Source: Thauera sp. (lineage in GTDB: Bacteria > Pseudomonadota > Gammaproteobacteria > Burkholderiales > Rhodocyclaceae). Taken from it: DNA of 32,000 nt. The translations under genes were made by a program, and so were the position numbers. The stretch is from assembly GCF_034003485.1 (NCBI RefSeq), contig NZ_JAVEYL010000023.1, positions 27,410 to 59,409 of the forward strand, given 5' to 3'. Under the pieces are notes generated by a model. The model did not search any database and had not been told where the DNA came from. It saw only the letters and a program-made list of their open reading frames with translations. This document shows positions 3,679 to 31,921 of the stretch, piece after piece (position 1 is the first letter of the stretch; each line of letters opens with the position of its first letter).

Positions 3679-5583
<1,905 letters not shown>

Positions 5584-5603
5584 TTTACCGCCGCGCGCGC
5601 CGA

Positions 5604-6515
5604 TCACGCCTTTTCAGTACGCCAGTCGCGCAGGGCGGCCAGGGTGTCGTCGAGACCGCCCACCACGCGGATGCCCGGCAGGCGTTTCTGCTTGTCGCGC
5701 ACGGCGGCGCCGCCGGCCCAGATCCCGATCCCGTCGGGCAGCATCGCGCGCAATTCCAGCAGGCCGTCGATCGCCTGGCGTGCCGGGTAGGCGATGCTGA
5801 ACGACAGGCCGACGATGTCGAAGCCGCCGCTCACCGCCGCGCTGCGGATGTCGGCGAGCGGTGTGCGCGTGCCCAGCGACAGGCAGGCGACGCCCTCGGG
5901 TACCAGCATCGCCTCGGCCATGAGCAGGCCGAGCACGTGCTCTTCTTCCGGGAAGGTGGTGAGCAGCACGCGCGGCCTCCCGCCCGGCGTGGCGTGGGCG
6001 CCGATCGCGCTGCGCAGCACGTTCTGCACCTGCTCGGTAAAGAGGTGTTCTTCCGGCACCTCGACCTCGCCGCGCATCCAGGCCTCGCCTACGGCGGCCG
6101 CCAGCGGGGCGACCGTGTCCGCGACGAAGCGCTGCAGTCCCTGCTTCATCAGCGCCTGGCGCAGGGCGGCGTTGAGTTCGACGCTGCGGTGCAGGCGCAC
6201 CAGTTGCAGCAGGCCGTCCTCGCGCCCGGTGCTGGCGGCCTCGGGGCACAGGCAACTGTCGAGCATGCTGGCGAGTTCTTCGATGCTGGCGCCGACGACG
6301 CCTGCCGGACGCCGGCCATGGTCGATCAGACGCCGGATCAGACGCAGTTTCTCGACCTGCTCGGGCGGATACAGGCGTTCGCCGTTGGCGTCCCGGGTCG
6401 GGGCGGGAAAACCGTAGCGCCGCTCCCACACCCGCAAGGTGTCCTTGGCGAGGCCCGTGTCGCGTTCGACGGCGGCGATGCTGAAGGCGGCTTCGGGTGG
6501 CGTGGGAGCGTTCAT
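5604..6515 (-). CDS. MerR-family transcriptional regulator with C-terminal cobalamin-binding domain (CarH/LitR-like)
   Basis: ORF 5604..6518 (TTG at 6518, ATG at 6515). N-terminal MerR HTH: [39 protein letters not shown]. The C-terminal Rossmann-like part carries EEHVLG (the ExHxxG B12-ligand motif), then SLG and a GG motif (WAGGAA). Confidence 0.8.
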
Positions 6516-22148: not shown

Positions 22149-22379
22149 ATGCAAACCATTCAAGCTTCCGAATTCAAGGCCCGCTGCCTCGCCCTGATGG
22201 ACCAGGTGGCGGCCTCCGGCGAGATCCTCGTCATCACCAAGAACGGCAAGCCCGTCGCCGAACTGCATCCTTATCAGGGCGCGCGCGCATCGTCGCCTTT
22301 CGGCCTGCATCCGGGCGTGCGCATCCTGGGCGATATCGTGTCGCCGGTCGCGGACGAGGACTGGGAGGCCTTGTCGTGA
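22149..22379 (+). CDS. Phd/YefM-type antitoxin
   Basis: ORF 22149..22379. IQASEFKARCLALMDQVAASGEILVITKNGKPVAEL. GTGA overlaps the downstream PIN gene. Confidence 0.8.
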   Translation: MQTIQASEFKARCLALMDQVAASGEILVITKNGKPVAELHPYQGARASSPFGLHPGVRILGDIVSPVADEDWEALS

Positions 22380-22777
22380 TCGTCCTCGATACACACGCGC
22401 TCATCTGGATGGATGCCGACGATGCCGCGCTCGGTCCTCAGGCGCGCGCGCGCATCGAGCAGGCATGGCGCGGGGGTGAAGTTGCGGTCAGCGCGATCAG
22501 CTTCTGGGAATGCGCCATGCTTGTGGATAAGGGGCGCATTGCCCTGCCGCTTGCTGTAGACGGCTGGCGGGCAGGCCTGCTGAGTGCAGGACTGGTCGAG
22601 ATTCCGCTCGACGGCCGCATCGCGCTCGCGGCTGCGGGGCTCGCCGACCTGCATCGTGACCCGGCAGACCGCTTCATCGCCGCATCCGCGGGGGCACGCA
22701 ACGCGACGCTGGTGACGGCGGACGAGAAGCTGCTGGCATGGAACTCGGCCCTGCTGCGGCTCGATGCACGGCGCTGA
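22376..22777 (+). CDS. vapC: type II toxin VapC (PIN domain)
   Basis: This is the in-frame part of ORF 22130..22777, from GTG 22376. It begins VIVLDTHALIWM and contains HRDPADRFIAASAGARNATLVTADEKL. Confidence 0.8.
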   Translation: MIVLDTHALIWMDADDAALGPQARARIEQAWRGGEVAVSAISFWECAMLVDKGRIALPLAVDGWRAGLLSAGLVEIPLDGRIALAAAGLADLHRDPADRFIAASAGARNATLVTADEKLLAWNSALLRLDARR

Positions 22778-22948
22778 GCGGCGTTCTGTTGCACGTCCGC
22801 AACAACAAAGGCTGGAATGTCGCGTTTTAGTGCTTCCAGGCTTGCAAGGTGGGCGGCAGGTTTGCAGAATCGCTCCAACTTCTCGCCAGAGAGGTGAGTA
22901 GGGCCAAGGCAAGTGCCTGGTCTCAACTTCAAATTTGAGGAGAAACAC

Positions 22949-23998
22949 ATGCAAAAGAAACTGATCGCGCTGGCTGTTGCTGGCCTCGTTTCGGCCCCGG
23001 CCTTCGCTCAGTCGAACGTGACCATCTACGGTGTGGCTGACGCCTACATGGCGTTTGGTGACCACGGTGACAACGACATGGGCGCCATCAACAGCGGCGG
23101 CCTGTCGGGTTCGCGTCTCGGTTTCCGCGGCGTCGAAGATCTGGGCAACGGCCTCAAGGCTGTGTTCACCTTCGAACAGGGCTACAACGTCGATGACGGC
23201 ACGGGCCTGGGTGGCAACTCGCGTCAGTCGTTCGTTGGCCTCTCGGGTGGTTTCGGTACCGTTAGCCTGGGTCGTCAGTACGCTCCTGGTTACGACTTCA
23301 TTGCTGACTCTTTCGGTAGCTCGCCGATCCTGTCGCCGCAAGCGATCCTTTCGGGCGCCGTGGGTTCGACGATCGATGCCAGCTCTGACGCTCGTTGGAA
23401 CAACTCCGTCGCCTACAACGGCGCTTTCTCGGGCCTGAAAGTTCGCGCCATCTACTCGATGGACGCTGATGTTAGCGGTCGTTCTGCGACCGAAGTTGGT
23501 ACCGATCCGTATGATGACGACGCGCTGGGCCTGGGCCTCGATTATTCGAACGGCCCGCTGCGTGTCGCCGCTGTTTACCAGTACCTGAAGGATGGTGTTG
23601 GCAGCGCAACTTCGGACGATCAGACGGAATGGTCGGTTGGTGGTAGCTACAACTTTGGTATCCTGACTCTGGCCGCCAACTACCAAGACTATGAGGCTGT
23701 TGGTAACCTCAGCGGTAACGACGGTGACATTTGGCAGGTTGGCGTGGTGGTGCCGGTTGGCGCTGCTGGCAACGTCCATCTGGGCTACGGTGAACTCGAC
23801 GCGGATCTTGCCGATGCCAAGGCTAAGTCCTACTCGATCGCTTACACGCACGCTCTGTCGAAGCGCACGACCGCTTACGCTGGCTACAACCGCACTGACA
23901 ACGATACTGGCCTGAACATCGGTGTTGTCCCCGCGCCGGCTGGCGTGACCGGCGAAGAAGCTGACGTCTTCGCTGTTGGCGTTCGCCACACCTTCTAA
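22949..23998 (+). CDS. outer-membrane general porin (betaproteobacterial OmpC-like / porin_4 type)
   Basis: This is the in-frame part of ORF 22913..23998. GAGGAG precedes ATG 22949. It has a signal peptide (MQKKLIALAVAGLVSAPAFA), then QSNVTIYGVAD, alternating beta-strand patterns, and a C-terminal F (AVGVRHTF). Codon usage differs from its neighbours, as in a highly expressed gene. Confidence 0.9.
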   Translation: MQKKLIALAVAGLVSAPAFAQSNVTIYGVADAYMAFGDHGDNDMGAINSGGLSGSRLGFRGVEDLGNGLKAVFTFEQGYNVDDGTGLGGNSRQSFVGLSGGFGTVSLGRQYAPGYDFIADSFGSSPILSPQAILSGAVGSTIDASSDARWNNSVAYNGAFSGLKVRAIYSMDADVSGRSATEVGTDPYDDDALGLGLDYSNGPLRVAAVYQYLKDGVGSATSDDQTEWSVGGSYNFGILTLAANYQDYEAVGNLSGNDGDIWQVGVVVPVGAAGNVHLGYGELDADLADAKAKSYSIAYTHALSKRTTAYAGYNRTDNDTGLNIGVVPAPAGVTGEEADVFAVGVRHTF

Positions 23999-24052: not shown

Positions 24053-24072
24053 GTTCACGCTCACCACATCAA

Positions 24073-24092
24073 CCGTCGCGTTACACGACGCT
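24073..24092. repeat. island palindrome family, copy (CGTCG-N7-CGACGCT)
   Basis: The sequence is cCGTCGcgttacaCGACGCT, directly after the integrase stop codon (24093..24095) at the left edge of the island. Confidence 0.5.
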
Positions 24093-25408: not shown

Positions 25409-25429
25409 AGCGTCGTGAAACGCGACGCT
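25409..25429. repeat. island palindrome family, copy (AGCGTCG-N7-CGACGCT)
   Basis: The sequence is AGCGTCGtgaaacgCGACGCT, 12 bp upstream of the integrase start. Confidence 0.6.
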
Positions 25430-25485
25430 ACGAGAAAGTGTGTGTGACCGTCCCATTACGCGACGCTTGAGAGATTGAATGCGTG

Positions 25486-25506
25486 AGCGTCGCGTAAAGA
25501 GACGCT
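25486..25506. repeat. island palindrome family, copy (AGCGTCG-N7-aGACGCT)
   Basis: The sequence is AGCGTCGcgtaaagAGACGCT. Its first 12 nt are the exact reverse complement of TTACGCGACGCT at 25456..25467. Confidence 0.55.
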
Positions 25507-25511
25507 TGCGA

Positions 25512-25946
25512 TCACTTCGGCTTGCGCACGATGCTGGCTGTGACGCTCTCGATGGCGCTGTCCAGTTCGCCCGCTTCGGCAGCCTGCTTGATCGTGGTAA
25601 GCGTCGGCACAATCTCAGCCGTGCTTTCCAGCTCGACCGCGTTCGTGTTCTTGCTGAGCGGCAGCACCTTGTTGCCATAGCGGATCGCAAGTTGAACCTT
25701 GCCGTTTGCTTCCCACCACCACGCCTTCACTTTCTTTTGCGCTTCGACGGTGACGCGCTCGCCCGTCTCTTCGTTGCGCACCTTGCGCTTGCTCTTGAGT
25801 TCGAAGCTCGCGCCTTCGTACACCGAGCGTGCCCACTCAATCTGCTCGGTAAGCTGCTTGATGAGTTTTGCGCGTCGTTGCTGTTGCGGGGAAAGCTCGT
25901 TAGGACGCTTGGCGGAAACAAGCTTGAGGGTGTTCAGCAGTGCCAT
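25512..25946 (-). CDS. hypothetical protein (144 aa, Lys/Glu-rich)
   Basis: ORF 25512..25946. GGAG lies 9 nt upstream of the ATG. MALLNTLKLVSAKRPNELSPQQQRRAKLIKQL...KVKAWWWEANGKVQLAIRYGNKVL. I could not confidently name a family. Confidence 0.6.
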   Translation of the reverse strand: MALLNTLKLVSAKRPNELSPQQQRRAKLIKQLTEQIEWARSVYEGASFELKSKRKVRNEETGERVTVEAQKKVKAWWWEANGKVQLAIRYGNKVLPLSKNTNAVELESTAEIVPTLTTIKQAAEAGELDSAIESVTASIVRKPK

Positions 25947-27606
25947 TTTCGACGCTCCATGTGTGTATGTTGTATGGATAGTTTATGGTCGATGCTGGCG
26001 TCGGACGACCGAAATTTGTCGCTGGCTGCTCCACCGAGAACTGCGCTTGTAGTGCTGCCTTCTCGATTGCGCATTGAGTTGCGAACTGCTCCTCTTCACG
26101 GATGTGCCGATGGTGTGCTTGCTCTTGGCGCGCTACCTCGGCAGAGTCGCTGAGGTATGGCTTCAGTTCTTTACCTTCCAGATGCCAGTAAGGAATGCCC
26201 GTCTGCTCTCTCATTTCAAGTTCGATGGTCGCTTTTAGCTCAGCGCCCAGTTTTCGATCCAAAATCACTGCGTCGTGTATCGAGGCGACGACCTGGCGCC
26301 CCTTGCTGGTTACGATTTTCTTCACGGCATCCATCGCCCACGTTTCGAAATGCTGATAGAGAAATGCGATAACGAGTGGTTTGCTTATGCGTCCGCTCTC
26401 CGTTCTCAATCGTGGGCTATCGAGTAAGGTCGGTATTTCTTTTAATGCGTAGGCATAGATCAACTCATCCATCACCTTCTGTTCCTGAATGAAGCCGCGG
26501 ATGGGTGCGCAAGTCAGAAAGCGACGGCGGTGGATCGGGTTTTTGATGATGTCGACTAATGCGGGGTTGTGCCAACTTCCATTCTTTAACCAGCCGCTTC
26601 GCTGCTCGCGTGCGCCAAAACTGATTGCCGTGATCGCTTGTTTGACGATGCGTTTCTGTAGATCCTCGTTGACGTTATCGTCCTTCTTGAATGTTAGTAA
26701 GCATATCTCCTTGACGATCGCAGGTTTGTCATCGATGAAGTAAATGCTGTTCTTAAATAGCGCGTCGGGTCTCGCACTTGGGTCAAGGGTTCGCGCTAAA
26801 TCGCTTCCCATACCGACCTTCCAAGATATGACGGCCGATCGTATGTCGTATTCCCAGCAGCCGCCATACATCGCTCGCCGTAGTTGCTTGCGAACAGACT
26901 GCGCACTGATGCCTTCGTAGTAGGTGCGGCCAAAAGCGCTTGGCTTGCGTCGTTGAAGATAAATGCCGCCCAGCTCGGTCGCGATGTTCAGAATGTGCGC
27001 AGCTTGGGTGAGGTCGGTGAGCCGCTTGTCCTCGGTTAAATGCTTGGGCTTTGTCTTGAGCCAATCGATGTAAGCCTGTAGTGACTTTGTGTTGACGGGT
27101 GTGGGGTCGAAGATTTCGAATAGCTCAGCTAGGCTGTTGATGGTCGCTGCTTCTGGATAGGTGCGGTCGATGAGGCTGCGTCCAGTTTGACTGCTGTCAC
27201 TGCCGCTCAACAGTTGAGCAGTTGCGCTATTGGTGCTTCCGAACTGCGCGATGTTGTCGAAGGTGATTGTGACTAAGGGCGAGAGCTTTACTTGCGAGAG
27301 TTTGTGGGTGAGGTTATTGCCTCGTTCGACGGCAATGACCAACGACAGCTTGTTCTGTTCAAGCCACTTATGTAGTCGTATCTTGTCGCGTCCGAGCTGT
27401 CCGCCTTTATTGCTCAGCGTGTGTAGCGATAGGCTGTATAGGTTGAGTTTGCTTTGCGCGGGTGTGCGCCCGTTGACGACAGACCTGGTAATCAAGTCTT
27501 CGAGGGTGGTGACGTATTTCTTGAGTGCGCGCGCGACGTTTGACGTTGGGAATGCCTCGGTGAGTGCGCGCGATACTTTCTCATCTACTTGTATATTGAT
27601 CGACAT
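25900..27606 (-). CDS. 568-aa protein with family-A (Pol I / T7-like) single-subunit polymerase-like motifs; function unknown
   Basis: ORF 25900..27606. AGGAGG lies upstream of ATG 27606. By-eye motifs: SAFGRTYY (aa 224-231), EYDIRSAVIS (D254), KQAITAISFG (K322..F330-G331) and ASIHDAV (H444-D445). Their order and spacing resemble palm/fingers motifs A, B and C. The call is not supported by any search. Confidence 0.7.
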   Translation of the reverse strand: MSINIQVDEKVSRALTEAFPTSNVARALKKYVTTLEDLITRSVVNGRTPAQSKLNLYSLSLHTLSNKGGQLGRDKIRLHKWLEQNKLSLVIAVERGNNLTHKLSQVKLSPLVTITFDNIAQFGSTNSATAQLLSGSDSSQTGRSLIDRTYPEAATINSLAELFEIFDPTPVNTKSLQAYIDWLKTKPKHLTEDKRLTDLTQAAHILNIATELGGIYLQRRKPSAFGRTYYEGISAQSVRKQLRRAMYGGCWEYDIRSAVISWKVGMGSDLARTLDPSARPDALFKNSIYFIDDKPAIVKEICLLTFKKDDNVNEDLQKRIVKQAITAISFGAREQRSGWLKNGSWHNPALVDIIKNPIHRRRFLTCAPIRGFIQEQKVMDELIYAYALKEIPTLLDSPRLRTESGRISKPLVIAFLYQHFETWAMDAVKKIVTSKGRQVVASIHDAVILDRKLGAELKATIELEMREQTGIPYWHLEGKELKPYLSDSAEVARQEQAHHRHIREEEQFATQCAIEKAALQAQFSVEQPATNFGRPTPASTINYPYNIHTWSVENGTAEHPQACFRQAS

Positions 27607-27646
27607 AAATCCTCCTTTCTCATATTTATGCGCTGAAAAAGTAGGT

Positions 27647-27669
27647 GTGTGACTTTTTAAAAGTCACAC
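27647..27669. repeat. 23-bp perfect palindrome GTGTGACTTTT-T-AAAAGTCACAC
   Basis: It has 11-bp arms and lies 41-63 bp upstream of the polymerase-like ORF start. It overlaps a possible -35 (GTCACA) that is followed 17 nt later by CATAAA on the minus strand. Confidence 0.6.
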
Positions 27670-28068
27670 GCTTATAGTAATAAGTTGTCTCTCTTTATTG
27701 ATGAATGATGATGGGTGTGATGGGTGCGAAGCAAGCGCATTCCTCCTTTCTTTCTTTTTTGGGTTGCGCTTTGTTTGTTTTGTTTTGCTTTTCTGCGCAG
27801 CGCAGGCGTAGACGCGTTAAAAAGCGCTGTGGCGCGTTTTTTGGGTGTCGGGAATGTGTGGGTAGCTGGGCGGCGCGCTTGCCGCTTAAAACGCGTTTAA
27901 ACGCGTCGGTGTGTCGCGCACTAAAAACCAAAGAGAATAGTGAAAAGCTTTGATTCTGCGCTAAGTCTTTGAAAGTTAATAACCCGCTGCTGCGCAATGC
28001 GCGGTTGTCCTCATAGAACCAAAGAAAACATAATAAATGCGCTTGAATTATTTGATTCTGGAGGGCGT

Positions 28069-28641
28069 ATGGGACAAGCGAGAGTGATGACGGCAGCAGA
28101 GGTGCGGCGGGTGCTGGACTACGTGGCAACGAGGCCGCACGCAGCACGCAACAGGGCGTTGGTGCTGATGTCACATTGGGCGGGGCTGCGCGCGAAGGAG
28201 ATCGCCGCGCTGCGCTGCTGCGATGTGGTCGATGGAGCGGGGCGGGTGAAGGAAGAAGTGCTGCTGTCGGTCGAGCAGACCAAGGGCAAGCGTGGGCGCG
28301 TGGTGTACTTGGGGACCAAGATTCGCAAGGAACTCGCCACCTACCTGCGCGCCTGTCCGCCGCGCAGTGACGCATCGCCACTCTTTCCGACGCAGAAAGC
28401 ACCGACGCGCGGCTTCTCGGCGAACACGATGGCGCAGTTCTTCCACAAGCTCTACAAGGAAGCGGGCATCGAGGGTGCCAGCTCACACAGCGGTCGGCGC
28501 AGCTACTTGACGACCCTTGCCGACAAAGGCACAAGCATCCATATTCTCAAGACGCTGGCAGGGCATCAGAGCATCAGCACCACTGCGGTGTACTTGTTCA
28601 GCAGCCCATCGCAACTGAAGGCAGCAGCCGATTTGGTCTAA
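28069..28641 (+). CDS. short tyrosine recombinase (catalytic domain only, 190 aa)
   Basis: This is the in-frame part of ORF 27997..28641. GGAGGG precedes ATG 28069. Catalytic residues: WAGLRAKEI (Arg), TKGKRGR (Lys), SHSGRRS (HxxR), LAGHQSISTTAVYL (His, Tyr). There is no N-terminal core-binding domain. Confidence 0.8.
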   Translation: MGQARVMTAAEVRRVLDYVATRPHAARNRALVLMSHWAGLRAKEIAALRCCDVVDGAGRVKEEVLLSVEQTKGKRGRVVYLGTKIRKELATYLRACPPRSDASPLFPTQKAPTRGFSANTMAQFFHKLYKEAGIEGASSHSGRRSYLTTLADKGTSIHILKTLAGHQSISTTAVYLFSSPSQLKAAADLV

Positions 28642-28661
28642 ACGGGATACAGGAGAGGAGT

Positions 28662-29060
28662 GTGCGGGACTTCGAGAAGGCGTTGTGCGAGTGGGCGCAG
28701 GAGTATGACGAATACGAGGAGTGCCCCGACGCGATCAGCATCGTGTTCGACGGCTATAGCGAATCAGACGAAGAGGAAGGCTTAGAGGAAGCGCTACGGA
28801 AGCGATGCTACGCCGTCTTCGTTCACAAACAGTCGGCAACCGAACGCTTTGTATTCCCAGAACATGACACGATACATAGGTGGATCTTACATAGGCCTGA
28901 CGTGGAGGCGTGCTTTTATGTCTGGCTTCGCGCAGACGGCCAGGTAGAGTTTATTACGCAACTTGATAATGCTGCGGATGAAACGTGGGCGCGGGAGGTG
29001 ATTATGGCGCTGTGGCGGAAAGAGCGTGGCGAGGATGAAGAAGACAGTAGCGTCGTTTAA
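28662..29060 (+). CDS. hypothetical acidic protein (132 aa)
   Basis: ORF 28662..29060. GTG start with AGGAGAGGAG upstream, 20 nt after the recombinase stop. It has Asp/Glu-rich N- and C-terminal parts. I did not recognise a family. Confidence 0.55.
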   Translation: MRDFEKALCEWAQEYDEYEECPDAISIVFDGYSESDEEEGLEEALRKRCYAVFVHKQSATERFVFPEHDTIHRWILHRPDVEACFYVWLRADGQVEFITQLDNAADETWAREVIMALWRKERGEDEEDSSVV

Positions 29061-29069
29061 CGCGACGCT
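29049..29069. repeat. island palindrome family, copy (AGCGTCG-N7-CGACGCT)
   Basis: The sequence is AGCGTCGtttaacgCGACGCT. It spans the stop codon of 28662..29060, between convergent genes. Confidence 0.6.
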
Positions 29070-29074
29070 GTCAC

Positions 29075-29335
29075 TCAAAGCTTGGGCGGGAGTTTCTTGG
29101 TGATTTCGAGGTTTCGTAGTTGTCGCAGTAGCTGGTCTTTCTGCTGCTGCTCGGCGTCACGCTTGAGTCTGCCGTAAGCCATCAGTCCCATCACCAGTTC
29201 GGCTTTTGTTGGTTTCTTGCGTTTTTCGCTCTGTGCGCTTTGCTGGATGACAGATTGTATGCGCGACAAGCTCTGTGCGGAGTCAGTGGCGACTGAAGGT
29301 GGGTTGGCTGGCTGAACGATTTCGTTGATTTTCAT
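29075..29335 (-). CDS. hypothetical small protein (86 aa)
   Basis: This is the in-frame part of ORF 29075..29416, from ATG 29335 (MKINEIVQPANPP...). The longer ORF would run through the upstream terminator hairpin. A TATAAA-like box lies about 20 nt upstream. Confidence 0.45.
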   Translation of the reverse strand: MKINEIVQPANPPSVATDSAQSLSRIQSVIQQSAQSEKRKKPTKAELVMGLMAYGRLKRDAEQQQKDQLLRQLRNLEITKKLPPKL

Positions 29336-29371
29336 GGTGTGCTCTCTGCTGTATTTATAGGCGTGGAGATA

Positions 29372-29410
29372 ATAAAAAAGGGTTTGCGCCGTAGAAAGCG
29401 CAAACCCTCT
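29372..29410 (-). terminator. rho-independent terminator after the AAA+ gene
   Basis: Arms GGGTTTGCGC (29380..29389) and GCGCAAACCC (29398..29407) are perfectly complementary. On the minus strand the stem is followed by a T-run (A-run 29374..29379 on plus). Confidence 0.7.
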
Positions 29411-29412
29411 TT

Positions 29413-30078
29413 TCATAGCACTGTTAGTTGTAGTCGTTTAGGAGGAATCGGTGTTTTTCGAGTGGCTATTAGATCGTCAAGTTGGTTGAGGTAGCCGCGA
29501 AGGTCACCAGTTTTGACGACAGAGAGTTGTTTAACGAGCTCCGCTTGTGTAATCGCGATGTTCTCGTTGGCAAGTATTGAGGTCGCGCGAGGCAAGAATG
29601 AGTGAACGGAAATGGCTGGAAACTCGACACAGCGGCAGCGGGAGCGGATGCTTTGATGGATGGCCATTTGATTGTTGGTTGTGGCGAAGAGTGTGATGCG
29701 ATCAGCGAACGAATCCAGCGCCGTCCAGAGCTTTACGAGGTTTTTGGTGGCGTTATCGAACTCGTGTAGCACGAGGTAATAGCGCGCGTTCTCGTCCCCT
29801 AATTTAGTTAACTGGCATTGACGTTGTAGGTAGTCTTTCAAGTCTTTTTGGTCGAGAAGCTCAGAATAGTCCTTTTCTTCGACTATGGCGGACTCACCGC
29901 TGATCGCGTAGGGCAGTAGATCAGCAACGGTCGTTTTTCCAGTTCCGTTTGGCCCATAAAAGATGATGTTTTGGATGAGGTCGCCTCGGGCGACGGTGTT
30001 GATAAACTCGCGAACACTTTCGTTCGGGTAAATCACATCGGCAAGCGTGGTGGGCTTGTATTTGATTTGGCAGTTCAT
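29413..30078 (-). CDS. AAA+ ATPase resembling clamp-loader subunits (T4 gp44 / RFC small subunit-like), 221 aa
   Basis: ORF 29413..30078. Motifs: IKYKPTTLADVIYP (RFC box II-like KYRP), GPNGTGKTT (Walker A), LVLHEFD (Walker B position with His in place of Asp), LFATTNN (sensor 1) and IRSRCRCVEF (SRC motif). Confidence 0.8.
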   Translation of the reverse strand: MNCQIKYKPTTLADVIYPNESVREFINTVARGDLIQNIIFYGPNGTGKTTVADLLPYAISGESAIVEEKDYSELLDQKDLKDYLQRQCQLTKLGDENARYYLVLHEFDNATKNLVKLWTALDSFADRITLFATTNNQMAIHQSIRSRCRCVEFPAISVHSFLPRATSILANENIAITQAELVKQLSVVKTGDLRGYLNQLDDLIATRKTPIPPKRLQLTVL

Positions 30079-30108
30079 GATCGTCTCCGTGTATAAGTGA
30101 GGTTGTTA

Positions 30109-30918
30109 TTAAGCGGCGAGGCGCTCAACGGTAGGTTTTTTGGCGTAAGCGGACAGTTCCGCGTTGTCGCGGTTTTGCGCGTGGGCAGTTTCGAGATTTT
30201 GTTTTGCGATTCGAGTCAGCAGTTGGTTATAGATGATGTCATCGACGTCGAGCAGCGCAGCGACCACATCGACAGTGCCATCGAGTTTGGGTCGAGCAAG
30301 AAAGATAGCGTGATTTTTTGTGGCACCCGCAAACTCGAACGTGGCAAGAGGTTTTGCCGTATTCGTTTCAATGTCAGCGAGAGTCGCGTTTTTTGAGTTG
30401 GCGAGATCAGCGGCCTTTTTGATGGCGTCCTCGCTCTTTTTGATTTGGCGACGAACTTCTTCAATGCCGCCGTTATCGCGCAGCCAGTTCGCGAGCCCGT
30501 CATAGGTCACGCCGTGCGACTTTGCGGCAGTGAGAACGGACACATAACGATTGGCGCGCTTGCGGTCGGAGTTGAAGACGTAGCGGATGAACATGGTGAG
30601 CATGGTTGTGTTGCTTTGAACTTTGATGCCGCGTTCGTTGAGCGCCGCGGTGAGGTCGAGGCGGAGTTTTTTGCGCTCAGCGTCTTTTGCGTTGATGAAG
30701 TTTTCGTCGTAGAGCTTCAGGCAGTCAGCCAGCAGTCCGTAAAGGATGTCGGTCGCGGTTTTGTATTCGTTGTCAGTCCATGCCGCGCAACGCGTATGGA
30801 TAGCGTCGAGAGACGCGACGGTGGTGTTGGCGAACAAGTCGGCGTGAGCGTTGGTGGTTGCGCGGGCGATGGACGTGCGAACAGTGGCGTTGAGGCGGGA
30901 AGTGGAAGTCTTAGTCAT
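30109..30918 (-). CDS. hypothetical protein (269 aa)
   Basis: This is the in-frame part of ORF 30109..31029. GAGGT precedes ATG 30918 (MTKTSTSRLNATV...). It ends 30 nt before the AAA+ gene. I did not recognise a family. Confidence 0.65.
   Translation of the reverse strand: MTKTSTSRLNATVRTSIARATTNAHADLFANTTVASLDAIHTRCAAWTDNEYKTATDILYGLLADCLKLYDENFINAKDAERKKLRLDLTAALNERGIKVQSNTTMLTMFIRYVFNSDRKRANRYVSVLTAAKSHGVTYDGLANWLRDNGGIEEVRRQIKKSEDAIKKAADLANSKNATLADIETNTAKPLATFEFAGATKNHAIFLARPKLDGTVDVVAALLDVDDIIYNQLLTRIAKQNLETAHAQNRDNAELSAYAKKPTVERLAA
30802..30822. repeat. island palindrome family, copy inside a CDS (AGCGTCG-N7-CGACGgT)
   Basis: The sequence is AGCGTCGagagacgCGACGGT, within the 5' part of the 30109..30918 gene. 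Confidence 0.45.
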
Positions 30919-31060
30919 TTGGATTACCTCGTTAGGTTGTCGACGTAGCGGGTTGGAAGGAGATGCCGTGTGTGCTGCGTCGATGGGTGTAGTATCCGCT
31001 GTTAGCTGTTTGGGTAATACAAACCACAAAAACGTCGATCGAACTGGTTAACATCTTTGT

Positions 31061-31921
31061 ATGGCTACGAAGCGGCCGCGCCAGGCGTGGCATCTCTCAG
31101 GCACCGACTTCACGCAGCCAAGGCTCTACGCGCGGCAGGACTGGCGCTTCTTGCTCTTCTTTCAGTTCCTGCGTATCAGCCCGAGCTATGCGCTGGCGCT
31201 CGACTGTGAGCGCGAGCAGGAACTCGCGGAGCGTCTGGGCAGCGCGGAACGAGCGCGCAAGGTGTGGCGCACGCGGTGTGATATGGGGGATGTGTTCACC
31301 GTCCTGTTCAAGGACTGGTGGCAGGCACGCGGGCTCTCGCTTTTCGGCATACACACGGCCAAGCCCCGAGTAGTGGGCATCCGTCGCTTGCGGCCAAATG
31401 AAGACGCCGATGAGCGGCGTAAGCGTGTAGGTGCTGCTTATCGCCGCTTTGTCGAGGGGCGGTATAGAGAGCAGGGAAACCCCGACTCAGTGCTGATCTC
31501 GGTTCCGTTAGGAATGAAGCCTGCGTTGATGGTGCGACAGTTGAAACAACTGCTGGCGGAGGTCCAGGCTGAGCATCCGCCCGAACTACCAGTAGCGGCA
31601 TACGCCCTTGAGGAAAACAAGTTGCGCGAGGCGAGGCTCCTTGCGTGCTTGCGCCTGATCTACAAGCGCAGCGCGCGGCCCGACGAGGAACTATGGCGCG
31701 CTGCGGCACGGGCCAAGATCAGCGAAACGCATGTCGTCGATCCGCTGGCGAAGAAGAAGGACGCCAAGAGTGCCGAGGCACGACGTATGCTGACGATCAT
31801 GGCAAGTCGCCTGTCGCGTGACGCACTCATGATTGCCGAGAACGCTGCGGCGGGTAAATTTCCATCGATGGAAGGTAAGCGCTCCACGAACCCCATCCTT
31901 CCGGGGCTCGCTACGCTGTGA
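31061..31921 (+). CDS. hypothetical protein, 3' end probably replaced by an IS insertion
   Basis: ORF 31061..31921 (MATKRPRQAWHLSGTDFTQPRLYARQDWRFLLFFQFLRISPSY...). The last ~15 codons lie beyond a GTAAGCG motif at 31875 that looks like an IS66-family terminus. Confidence 0.6.
   Translation: MATKRPRQAWHLSGTDFTQPRLYARQDWRFLLFFQFLRISPSYALALDCEREQELAERLGSAERARKVWRTRCDMGDVFTVLFKDWWQARGLSLFGIHTAKPRVVGIRRLRPNEDADERRKRVGAAYRRFVEGRYREQGNPDSVLISVPLGMKPALMVRQLKQLLAEVQAEHPPELPVAAYALEENKLREARLLACLRLIYKRSARPDEELWRAAARAKISETHVVDPLAKKKDAKSAEARRMLTIMASRLSRDALMIAENAAAGKFPSMEGKRSTNPILPGLATL

Follow-up and report, generated by a model that had tools for sequence, protein, structure and literature searches.

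The region from position 24072 to beyond position 31874 of a 32,000-nt stretch of Thauera sp. DNA (contig NZ_JAVEYL010000023.1, positions 27,410 to 59,409; hereafter the window) was found to hold a nine-gene unit that encodes a very divergent family-A DNA polymerase and is punctuated by recombinase-type palindromes, as seen in Table 1. We interpret this region as one integrated element of about 8 kb that inserts site-specifically, replicates itself and belongs with the elements predicted for TV-Pol polymerases, and that is slightly damaged at its far end. The probability of this interpretation is, in our estimate, roughly 0.6. TV-Pols encoded beside lambda-type integrases or resolvases were predicted in 2008 to mark replicative elements and to have primase-polymerase activity (PMC2579912). 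The kind of element was therefore already predicted, and it is neither a new class nor a recognisable defence system. An earlier note, made from the sequence of the window alone, had proposed either a self-replicating integrative element of an undescribed kind or a conflict/defence system. The first proposal is the better supported of the two, but the kind is not undescribed, since it was predicted in 2008 (PMC2579912) and the corresponding polymerase of the staphylococcal cassette chromosome SCCmec has been characterised (PMC7581432, PMC10061031).

The G+C content (GC) across 25.5-31 kb was 0.50-0.58, compared to 0.62-0.73 in the remainder of the window, and a 434-amino-acid (aa) tyrosine integrase flanks the low-GC segment, as expected from the earlier description of a compositionally foreign segment beside an integrase. 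The eight open reading frames (ORFs) described for this segment, the 47-nt overlap between two of them and the terminator were all present in the ORF list and on reading of the minus strand. The segment itself was correctly placed, but the unit is longer, reaching 24072 and including the integrase. From about 17 to 25 kb the GC was intermediate (0.60-0.64), a sign that the element may be set in a larger variable region. No tRNA genes were found in the window, and an Rfam search of the island returned zero matches.

The assignment of the 568-aa protein as a polymerase is structural and backed by motifs, since no sequence method linked its family to PolA or T7 RNA polymerase. Homologues were abundant. 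At least 480 were found in a 90%-identity collection, all without a name or a Pfam domain, and an exhaustive profile search gathered 780 clusters at 50% identity, 337 of which scored below 1e-30. Among the best 150 clusters these are stand-alone proteins, with full-length members of about 450-720 aa; the nearest homologues that could be named came from Thauera sp. (88% identity). The protein had no match in Pfam, NCBIfam, PHROGs or PADLOC or by phmmer against the PDB, a profile search of the PDB found no match up to E = 10, and the hhalign comparison with E. coli Pol I and T7 RNA polymerase had a probability of 0.3%.

An AlphaFold model of the protein was built with 38 homologues and had a mean predicted local distance difference test (pLDDT) score of 79. 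The top 50 Foldseek matches of this model in the PDB were all family A polymerases (E from 2e-6, probability 1.0), including Taq, Klenow, Bst, T7 DNA polymerase, apicoplast Pol and Pol theta. The Pol I/T7-like character proposed earlier was thus recovered at the level of the fold, with Taq, Klenow and T7 DNA polymerase matched at about 1e-6 and the catalytic residues invariant. In BFVD, the first two matches were full-length homologues of uncultured tailed phages (8e-28 and 1e-20). These were followed by the Zamilon virophage 'DNA replication protein', a Pyramimonas orientalis virus replication protein and some nameless entries, at 6e-10 to 5e-8 and a root-mean-square deviation of 4.5-6.8 A over about 335 columns, and the first named phage Pol I ranked lower, at about 5e-6.

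Conservation was read from an alignment of 109 sequences, which included 66 genome-derived homologues and five viral ones (22-27% identity). Thirteen positions, R227, Y229, D254, K322, T326, A327, G331, E375, Y417, Q418, E421, H444 and D445, were invariant (109/109). FGR227TYY lies in a beta-hairpin (strands 215-222 and 228-231), and before it come model helices 173-184 and 192-211, candidates for the two antiparallel helices of a thumb. EYD254IRS is motif A, with D254 within strand 250-256, and IH444D445A is motif C, with D445 at the turn between strands 439-443 and 446-449. K322QAITAISF330G is found at the end of a helix in the model, and we read this helix as the O-helix, with K322 as the likely counterpart of Klenow K758 and F330-G331 that of Y766-G767. 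Of the acidic residues in the fingers, E375 is invariant and D380 is kept in 105/109 sequences. The N-terminal domain (about residues 1-116) was predicted to be alpha/beta. Judging from the model and the motifs, this is a TV-Pol-type family-A polymerase that is extremely divergent yet catalytically intact.

The gene neighbourhood is conserved. The same nine genes in the same order were found in loci with a polymerase 90% identical to that of the window (L001-L003; L numbers designate loci) and in loci where the polymerase is 59% identical (L008 and L009), so that the arrangement noted earlier in this one sequence is kept in its relatives. A wider family scan, with one genome per species, recovered 80 loci whose polymerases share 34-46% identity with that of the window. 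Almost all of these loci belong to freshwater Burkholderiales (Limnohabitans, Polynucleobacter, Comamonadaceae and Oxalobacteraceae), and several genomes carry three or four copies of the element each. The DUF6641 gene is immediately downstream of the polymerase gene in 44/65 loci. In the 38 well-flanked loci, which have at least 5 kb on both sides, homologues of the short recombinase were present in 34, of DUF6641 in 31, of the 286-aa protein in 22 and of the 269-aa protein in 19. The AAA+ ATPase was found in none of the 38 well-flanked loci outside the window lineage (0/38), and the polymerase/AAA+ pair, whose conservation the earlier note had wanted tested, is therefore not a conserved couple. 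The ATPase gene is confined to six close loci (L001-L003 and L008-L010), as are the 132-aa and 86-aa proteins, and the long integrase gave only weak, generic recombinase-level matches elsewhere.

In distant loci the usual order is recombinase (-), polymerase (+), DUF6641 (+), 286-aa homologue (-) and 269-aa homologue (+). It is a circular permutation of the order in the window, a pattern that speaks for a circular intermediate opened at different points on integration. A backbone without the polymerase also exists, with DUF6641, the short recombinase and a divergently oriented gene pair for homologues of the 286-aa and 269-aa proteins (L099-L101, L086 and L098). Within a broader family of small integrative elements, the polymerase is therefore a module that can be present or absent. 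DUF6641 is far commoner than the polymerase (more than 3600 matches), and on an Azospirillum chromid it adjoins an integrase. These backbones carry variable cargo, among it caspase-like peptidases, a methylase, and Macro and H-NS proteins.

The ends of the unit are defined by a 21-bp palindrome, AGCGTCG-N7-CGACGCT, in which 7-nt arms enclose a 7-nt variable spacer. A pattern search of the window gave 11 matches at 6 sites compared to 0.28 expected. Core sites of tyrosine recombinases usually have this layout, with 7-nt arms on both sides of a variable spacer of 7 nt, and we infer that the palindromes are the sites of the 434-aa integrase. Intact relatives have seven palindromes, two terminal (7.97 kb apart) and five internal, and the far terminal one is just past a 314-aa gene. 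All seven positions are kept in L008, where the DNA of the element is about 78% identical. The seven-site set is restricted to the lineage with the 434-aa integrase; elsewhere only stray near-matches were seen, in 3/~80 loci. The integrase has a SAM-like core-binding domain and a catalytic domain (PHROG_1 integrase, 5e-34), and the short recombinase has a catalytic domain only (PF00589, 4e-24; phrog_216, 2e-39). Catalytic residues were read in the sequences of both, so the two tyrosine recombinases reported earlier, one of them catalytic-domain-only, were confirmed. In L001, the far terminal site and the internal site closest to DUF6641 share one spacer sequence, a hint that recombination could also yield a product without the integrase gene.

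The far end is missing from the window. Homology to L001 ends at 31874, and the 314-aa gene is reduced to 286 aa; the 286-aa unknown of the earlier note is thus a real ORF, but a 3'-truncated copy of a longer gene. Past 31874 there is unrelated DNA up to 32000, which contains the C-terminus of a minus-strand ORF (ending in TVEHFEALLPWSLKAEQLITA before its stop) and is probably an insertion. The truncated end gene, and the finding of neither attB nor attP, would fit a decayed prophage or island remnant whose genes no longer function as a unit. We regard this as extremely unlikely, since the nine ORFs are intact, their order is kept at 59% polymerase identity, the catalytic residues are invariant and the seven cis sites hold their positions.

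For a functional element, the following mechanism is proposed. The Xer-like 434-aa integrase would recombine the two terminal palindromes and release a circle, and this circle would be copied by the element's own polymerase, which may prime synthesis and/or extend via strand displacement. Strand displacement is proposed because the element encodes no helicase. The DUF6641 protein, made from the same transcript as the polymerase, may assist by binding DNA. In the window lineage, the ATPase, which lacks a collar domain, may also assist, perhaps through the host sliding clamp. A conserved box upstream of the polymerase gene could serve as its promoter/operator or as a start site, and the short recombinase, which is ancestral in the wider family, might resolve multimers or act as an alternative integrase.

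Several observations weigh against such a self-replicating element. Sequence methods, with E. coli Pol I, T7 RNA polymerase and the libraries as comparators, gave no link of the polymerase to PolA, TV-Pol or T7 RNA polymerase. The polymerase assignment comes from a predicted structure with template modelling (TM) scores of 0.3-0.36 to solved polymerases, and the Arg of the RxxxK motif is not kept (position 318 varies among P, L, K and A, with K322 invariant). Library scans of the element's proteins revealed no helicase, recognisable initiator or transfer functions. DUF6641 is a weak candidate for a polymerase partner, because the same backbone without a polymerase also has it and because it has no match to an oligonucleotide/oligosaccharide-binding (OB) fold. 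All close copies occupy one locus, so that recent mobility would be a conjecture, and between L008 and L001 the element (about 78% nucleotide identity) has diverged only moderately more than its flanks (80-92%). Patterns for the circular junction (attP) and the empty site (attB) gave 0 hits in a metagenome collection, and thus excision is a step that we infer.

Two short loci were considered as free circles and rejected: L003 (8.3 kb) ends within an attachment (att) site and within repeated porin sequence, and L065 (10.4 kb) contains a host peptidase gene. A search for flanking direct repeats in three distant loci also gave no convincing att pairs.

Another possible explanation for a polymerase in such a unit is that it fills in the second strand after the element enters a cell as single-stranded DNA, through transformation, vesicles or conjugative mobilisation, and so gives the recombinases a duplex substrate. 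Rice proposed this alternative for the PolA-SSB primases (polymerases paired with an SSB, a protein that binds single-stranded DNA) of SCC elements (PMC10061031). It fits both the absence of a helicase and initiator and the existence of polymerase-free backbone elements. However, no relaxase, oriT or competence-linked gene was seen in library scans of the element's proteins, and the clamp-loader-type ATPase suggests processive synthesis, not a one-time fill-in of an 8-kb strand. We consider this explanation unlikely.

The small size of the unit (8 kb), with an integrase and a replication module together, could also indicate a phage satellite or helper-dependent island, which would excise, replicate by its own polymerase and be packaged by a helper phage. 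Some links to phages were found. IMG/VR contained five distant relatives of the polymerase (22-27% identity), one of them beside terminase and portal genes, the best BFVD matches are from uncultured tailed phages, and DUF6641 has a PHROG family. On the other hand, no capsid, terminase small subunit, packaging-redirection or AlpA-type genes were recognised in library scans, and the polymerase family (at least 35% identity) was absent from 2.9 million IMG/VR contigs and from the phage and plasmid collections. A tblastn search with the polymerase gave no match in 50,697 phage records and 72,556 plasmids, and one with DUF6641 gave none in the phage records. A satellite therefore appears quite unlikely. 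The relative with phage neighbours is L093, where the distant homologue (220-1860) is beside the terminase large subunit and portal genes, suggesting that distant members of the polymerase family do occur in genuine tailed phages.

The 221-aa ATPase matched the PHROG clamp-loader family phrog_168 (4e-29), the RFC small subunit (3e-17) and also DnaX models. Its best PDB sequence matches were RFC5, T4 gp44 and archaeal RFC small subunits, over residues 5-205 (domains I-II). These matches place the protein in the clamp-loader clade by sequence, in line with the gp44/RFC-like ATPase of the earlier note. Walker A (GPNGTGKT), sensor 1 and the SRC motif (SRSRC) are present, and Walker B is HE, not DE. 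No match extends past about position 213 of 319-354, and there is no collar domain. Library scans of the element's proteins found neither a clamp gene nor one resembling gp62/delta.

The DUF6641 protein (PF20346, 7e-9; phrog_31551, 8e-27) is basic, with an isoelectric point (pI) of 9.8, and has invariant aromatic residues. Its gene overlaps the polymerase gene by 47 nt, and the N-terminus encoded in the overlap is kept across the family. In the model (pLDDT 80), a long helix precedes five short strands and two further helices. A fold search of the PDB gave nothing below E = 0.9, so that an OB fold is not supported. The MP subunit of CcPol-MP, the A-family polymerase complex of SCCmec, is a five-stranded beta-barrel (PMC10201439), and by analogy a similar DNA-binding role is possible for DUF6641.

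Since the polymerase and the 132-, 86-, 269- and 286-aa proteins have no family match and DUF6641 is uncharacterised, the set could instead serve in phage defence or conflict, with a polymerase-derived enzyme and the AAA+ protein as effector and sensor and with recombinases that only mobilise them. Conflict-type cargo is carried on related backbones, and defence was raised by Rice as a possibility for PolA-SSB pairs (PMC10061031). A PADLOC run (PADLOC-DB 2.0), however, gave no significant matches: the ATPase was matched only at the level of the P-loop (best 5.8e-5, 20 bits) and the polymerase not at all. The polymerase/AAA+ pair is also limited to one lineage, and genomes with several copies, terminal recombination sites in the window lineage and a circularly permuted order are traits of a mobile-element backbone. 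The defence system offered in the earlier note is therefore very unlikely.

Upstream of the polymerase gene, a 21-nt box was found in 83/90 polymerase loci scanned, allowing up to 4 mismatches, compared to 0/40 shuffled loci. It is kept although the polymerases in those loci share just 34-46% identity, and its orientation is always that of the polymerase gene. The exact 11-mer GTGTGACTTTT has 62 occurrences in 1.3 Mb, where we estimate that about 0.6 would be expected. Some loci hold two to four copies, nearly all upstream, and the box was not found in the polymerase-less backbones. It is often trailed by GCTAAATAC and a GAAATCCnGGATTTC palindrome. The box could be a promoter/operator of the polymerase gene or a start site for the polymerase. 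In the window lineage it grows into a perfect 10-bp inverted repeat (27647-27669; hairpin z-score -7.1). This hairpin was rejected as a conserved structure, since the second arm exists in some lineages only and no compensatory changes were seen. The box was also rejected as an att site, because most loci have a single copy, located between the recombinase and polymerase genes and off the ends of the element.

A more speculative proposal, which we think unlikely as it stands, is that the polymerase and its co-travelling box form a minimal helicase-free replicon. Synthesis would start de novo and specifically at the box, possibly with DUF6641, and in the window lineage the collar-less ATPase would recruit the host clamp. 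If true, the enzyme would be a family-A primase-polymerase with sequence specificity, or even a single-subunit RNA polymerase that recognises a promoter and supplies its own primer. In bacteria, the element would then be the family-A equivalent of pipolins and would have a defined origin; it is abundant in freshwater Burkholderiales.

The TV-Pol (transposon-virus polymerase) family is defined by virophage replication proteins, with Sputnik V13 as the founding example, and a Thauera sequence was already part of the 2008 alignment by Iyer, Abhiman and Aravind (PMC2579912). Like TV-Pols, the polymerase described here is a stand-alone protein of about 500-600 aa, kin to family A and T7-type RNA polymerases and without an exonuclease. 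It has a putative thumb, a hairpin with an invariant Arg (R227, 109/109) and a palm with two invariant Asp, and virophage replication proteins are its nearest named structural neighbours. The setting is also similar, as a lambda-type integrase is encoded next to it in a compositionally distinct island, here with two tyrosine recombinases. Unlike TV-Pols, it shows no profile link, does not keep the RxxxK Arg and has an N-terminal domain predicted as alpha/beta, not all-helical. The element also lacks a D5-type helicase, and the partners differ from those in TV-Pol descriptions, being DUF6641, the short recombinase and, in the window lineage, the clamp-loader-type ATPase.

CcPol-MP becomes a primase once its polymerase is bound to a small protein that binds single-stranded DNA; it is a system of Bacillota, acts together with a helicase and is encoded next to serine recombinases (PMC7581432, PMC10061031). 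The Thauera element resembles CcPol-MP and other PolA-SSB pairs in that an island integrated at a specific site encodes a truncated A-family polymerase that lacks a functional exonuclease. As in CcPol-MP, the gene directly downstream, in the same transcript, specifies a small protein for which a beta region of five strands is predicted, and the presumed role is in replication of the element. PolA-SSB pairs always come with a helicase and large serine recombinases, occur in Bacillota and have a small protein with a confident OB fold. The present element, in contrast, has no helicase domain in any of its nine proteins, encodes tyrosine-type recombinases (PF00589) and is found in Betaproteobacteria, and its DUF6641 protein has no OB-fold match and is also found apart from the polymerase.

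Pipolins are likewise small integrative elements that have their own polymerase and Xer-like tyrosine recombinases and lack capsid and conjugation genes, as in the present element. They differ in that their polymerase is a primer-independent family B enzyme, in their insertion in tRNA genes with direct repeats and in their host range. The ATPase shares Walker A, sensor 1, the SRC arginine finger and the lid domain with T4 gp44, RFC and DnaX. In contrast to clamp loaders, it has HE for DE in Walker B, and no clamp gene or gp62/delta-type partner is present in the element. It is without the pentamer-building collar, since it has 221 aa compared to about 320-370 in clamp-loader subunits. The features that set the element apart are thus the lack of a helicase, the tyrosine recombinases, the non-exclusive small protein, the collar-less ATPase and the upstream box.

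Polymerases of the TV-Pol type were predicted in 2008, and CcPol-MP of SCCmec represents the single lineage tested so far. The family described here, with 780 clusters, no Pfam model and a perfectly conserved active site, is invisible to sequence annotation. Small helicase-free elements could provide a compact system for studying how the replication of a mobile element is initiated and kept going by a family-A enzyme, and the upstream box and the seven recombinase-type palindromes are directly testable handles. In Limnohabitans, Polynucleobacter and other freshwater Burkholderiales the elements are frequent and occur in multiple copies. Their variable cargo includes outer-membrane proteins, and they may influence genome plasticity in these abundant lake bacteria.

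The coordinates of the features are collected in Table 1. The short recombinase and polymerase genes are divergently transcribed. The terminator is considered real because an 11-bp G+C-rich stem and a T-run come immediately after the stop codon of the AAA+ gene on the minus strand. None of the 132-, 86-, 269- and 286-aa proteins matched Pfam, NCBIfam, PHROGs or PADLOC, and profile searches with the 269-aa and 286/314-aa families against the PDB and Pfam also gave no match. The 86-aa ORF was likewise called as 86 aa in L008.

Table 1. Location of the element's genes and sites in the 32,000-nt window
Feature	Position	Strand	Basis or remark
Terminal palindrome ACCGTCG-CGTTACA-CGACGCT	24072-24092	.	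Directly past integrase stop; att-like end
Tyrosine integrase, 434 aa	24093-25397	-	Flanks low-GC segment
Three palindromes	25409-25429, 25447-25467, 25486-25506	.	DUF6641-integrase spacer, 38-39 nt apart
DUF6641 protein, 144 aa	25512-25946	-	ORF list, PF20346
Polymerase, divergent family-A (TV-Pol-like), 568 aa	25900-27606	-	Structure model, motifs
Upstream box TACTATAAGCGTGTGACTTTT, 21 nt	27659-27679	-	Ends 52 nt before polymerase ATG
Short tyrosine recombinase, 190 aa (ATG 28069) or 214 aa (start 27997)	to 28641	+	PF00589
Acidic protein, 132 aa, pI 4.4, no assigned function	28662-29060	+	Confined to window lineage
Palindrome	29049-29069	.	Between convergent 132-aa and 86-aa genes
Basic protein, 86 aa, no assigned function	29075-29335	-	Separate transcription unit past terminator
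Intrinsic terminator	29408->29372	-	11-bp G+C-rich stem, then TTTTTTATTAT
AAA+ ATPase of the clamp-loader clade (by sequence), 221 aa	29413-30078	-	phrog_168, RFC small subunit
Backbone protein, 269 aa, no assigned function	30109-30918	-	Homologues in 32 loci
Palindrome	30802-30822	.	Within 269-aa gene
286-aa ORF, shortened copy of 314-aa backbone protein	31061-31921	+	Homologues in 41 loci

The earlier note had seen no helicase in the window. This was not strictly correct, as a complete RecQ helicase (DEAD, Helicase_C, RecQ_Zn_bind, RQC and HRDC) is encoded at 3679-5607 (-). The gene belongs to the host, in the high-GC part of the window, and is 20 kb away from the island.

The C-terminus of the 434-aa integrase (about residues 348-434) resembles DUF4160/DhiT, which is of a toxin type (PF13711, 3.9e-8; NCBIfam DhiT, 1.7e-8). 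The fusion of an integrase with DUF4160 is unusual and is kept in L001 and L008.

In L001 and L008, the nine-gene unit sits between two tandem Porin_4 genes, and the window lineage (22913-23998 in the window; L001 and L008) is placed between two porin paralogues. In L086 (Limnohabitans parvus, 1-21536), three related elements are in tandem with a Porin_4 gene separating each, and one polymerase-less relative has a gene for an outer-membrane protein beta-barrel. Porin linkage was rejected as a general rule, with 3/80 genome loci only, though distant lineages show it again. The porins may be carried as cargo, or insertions may have a hot spot here. Upstream of the porin in the window there is an ORF for a Phd/YefM-type antitoxin (22149-22379) followed by a PIN-like ORF (together 22149-22777), and at the corresponding place L001 and L008 have a series of toxin-antitoxin pairs.

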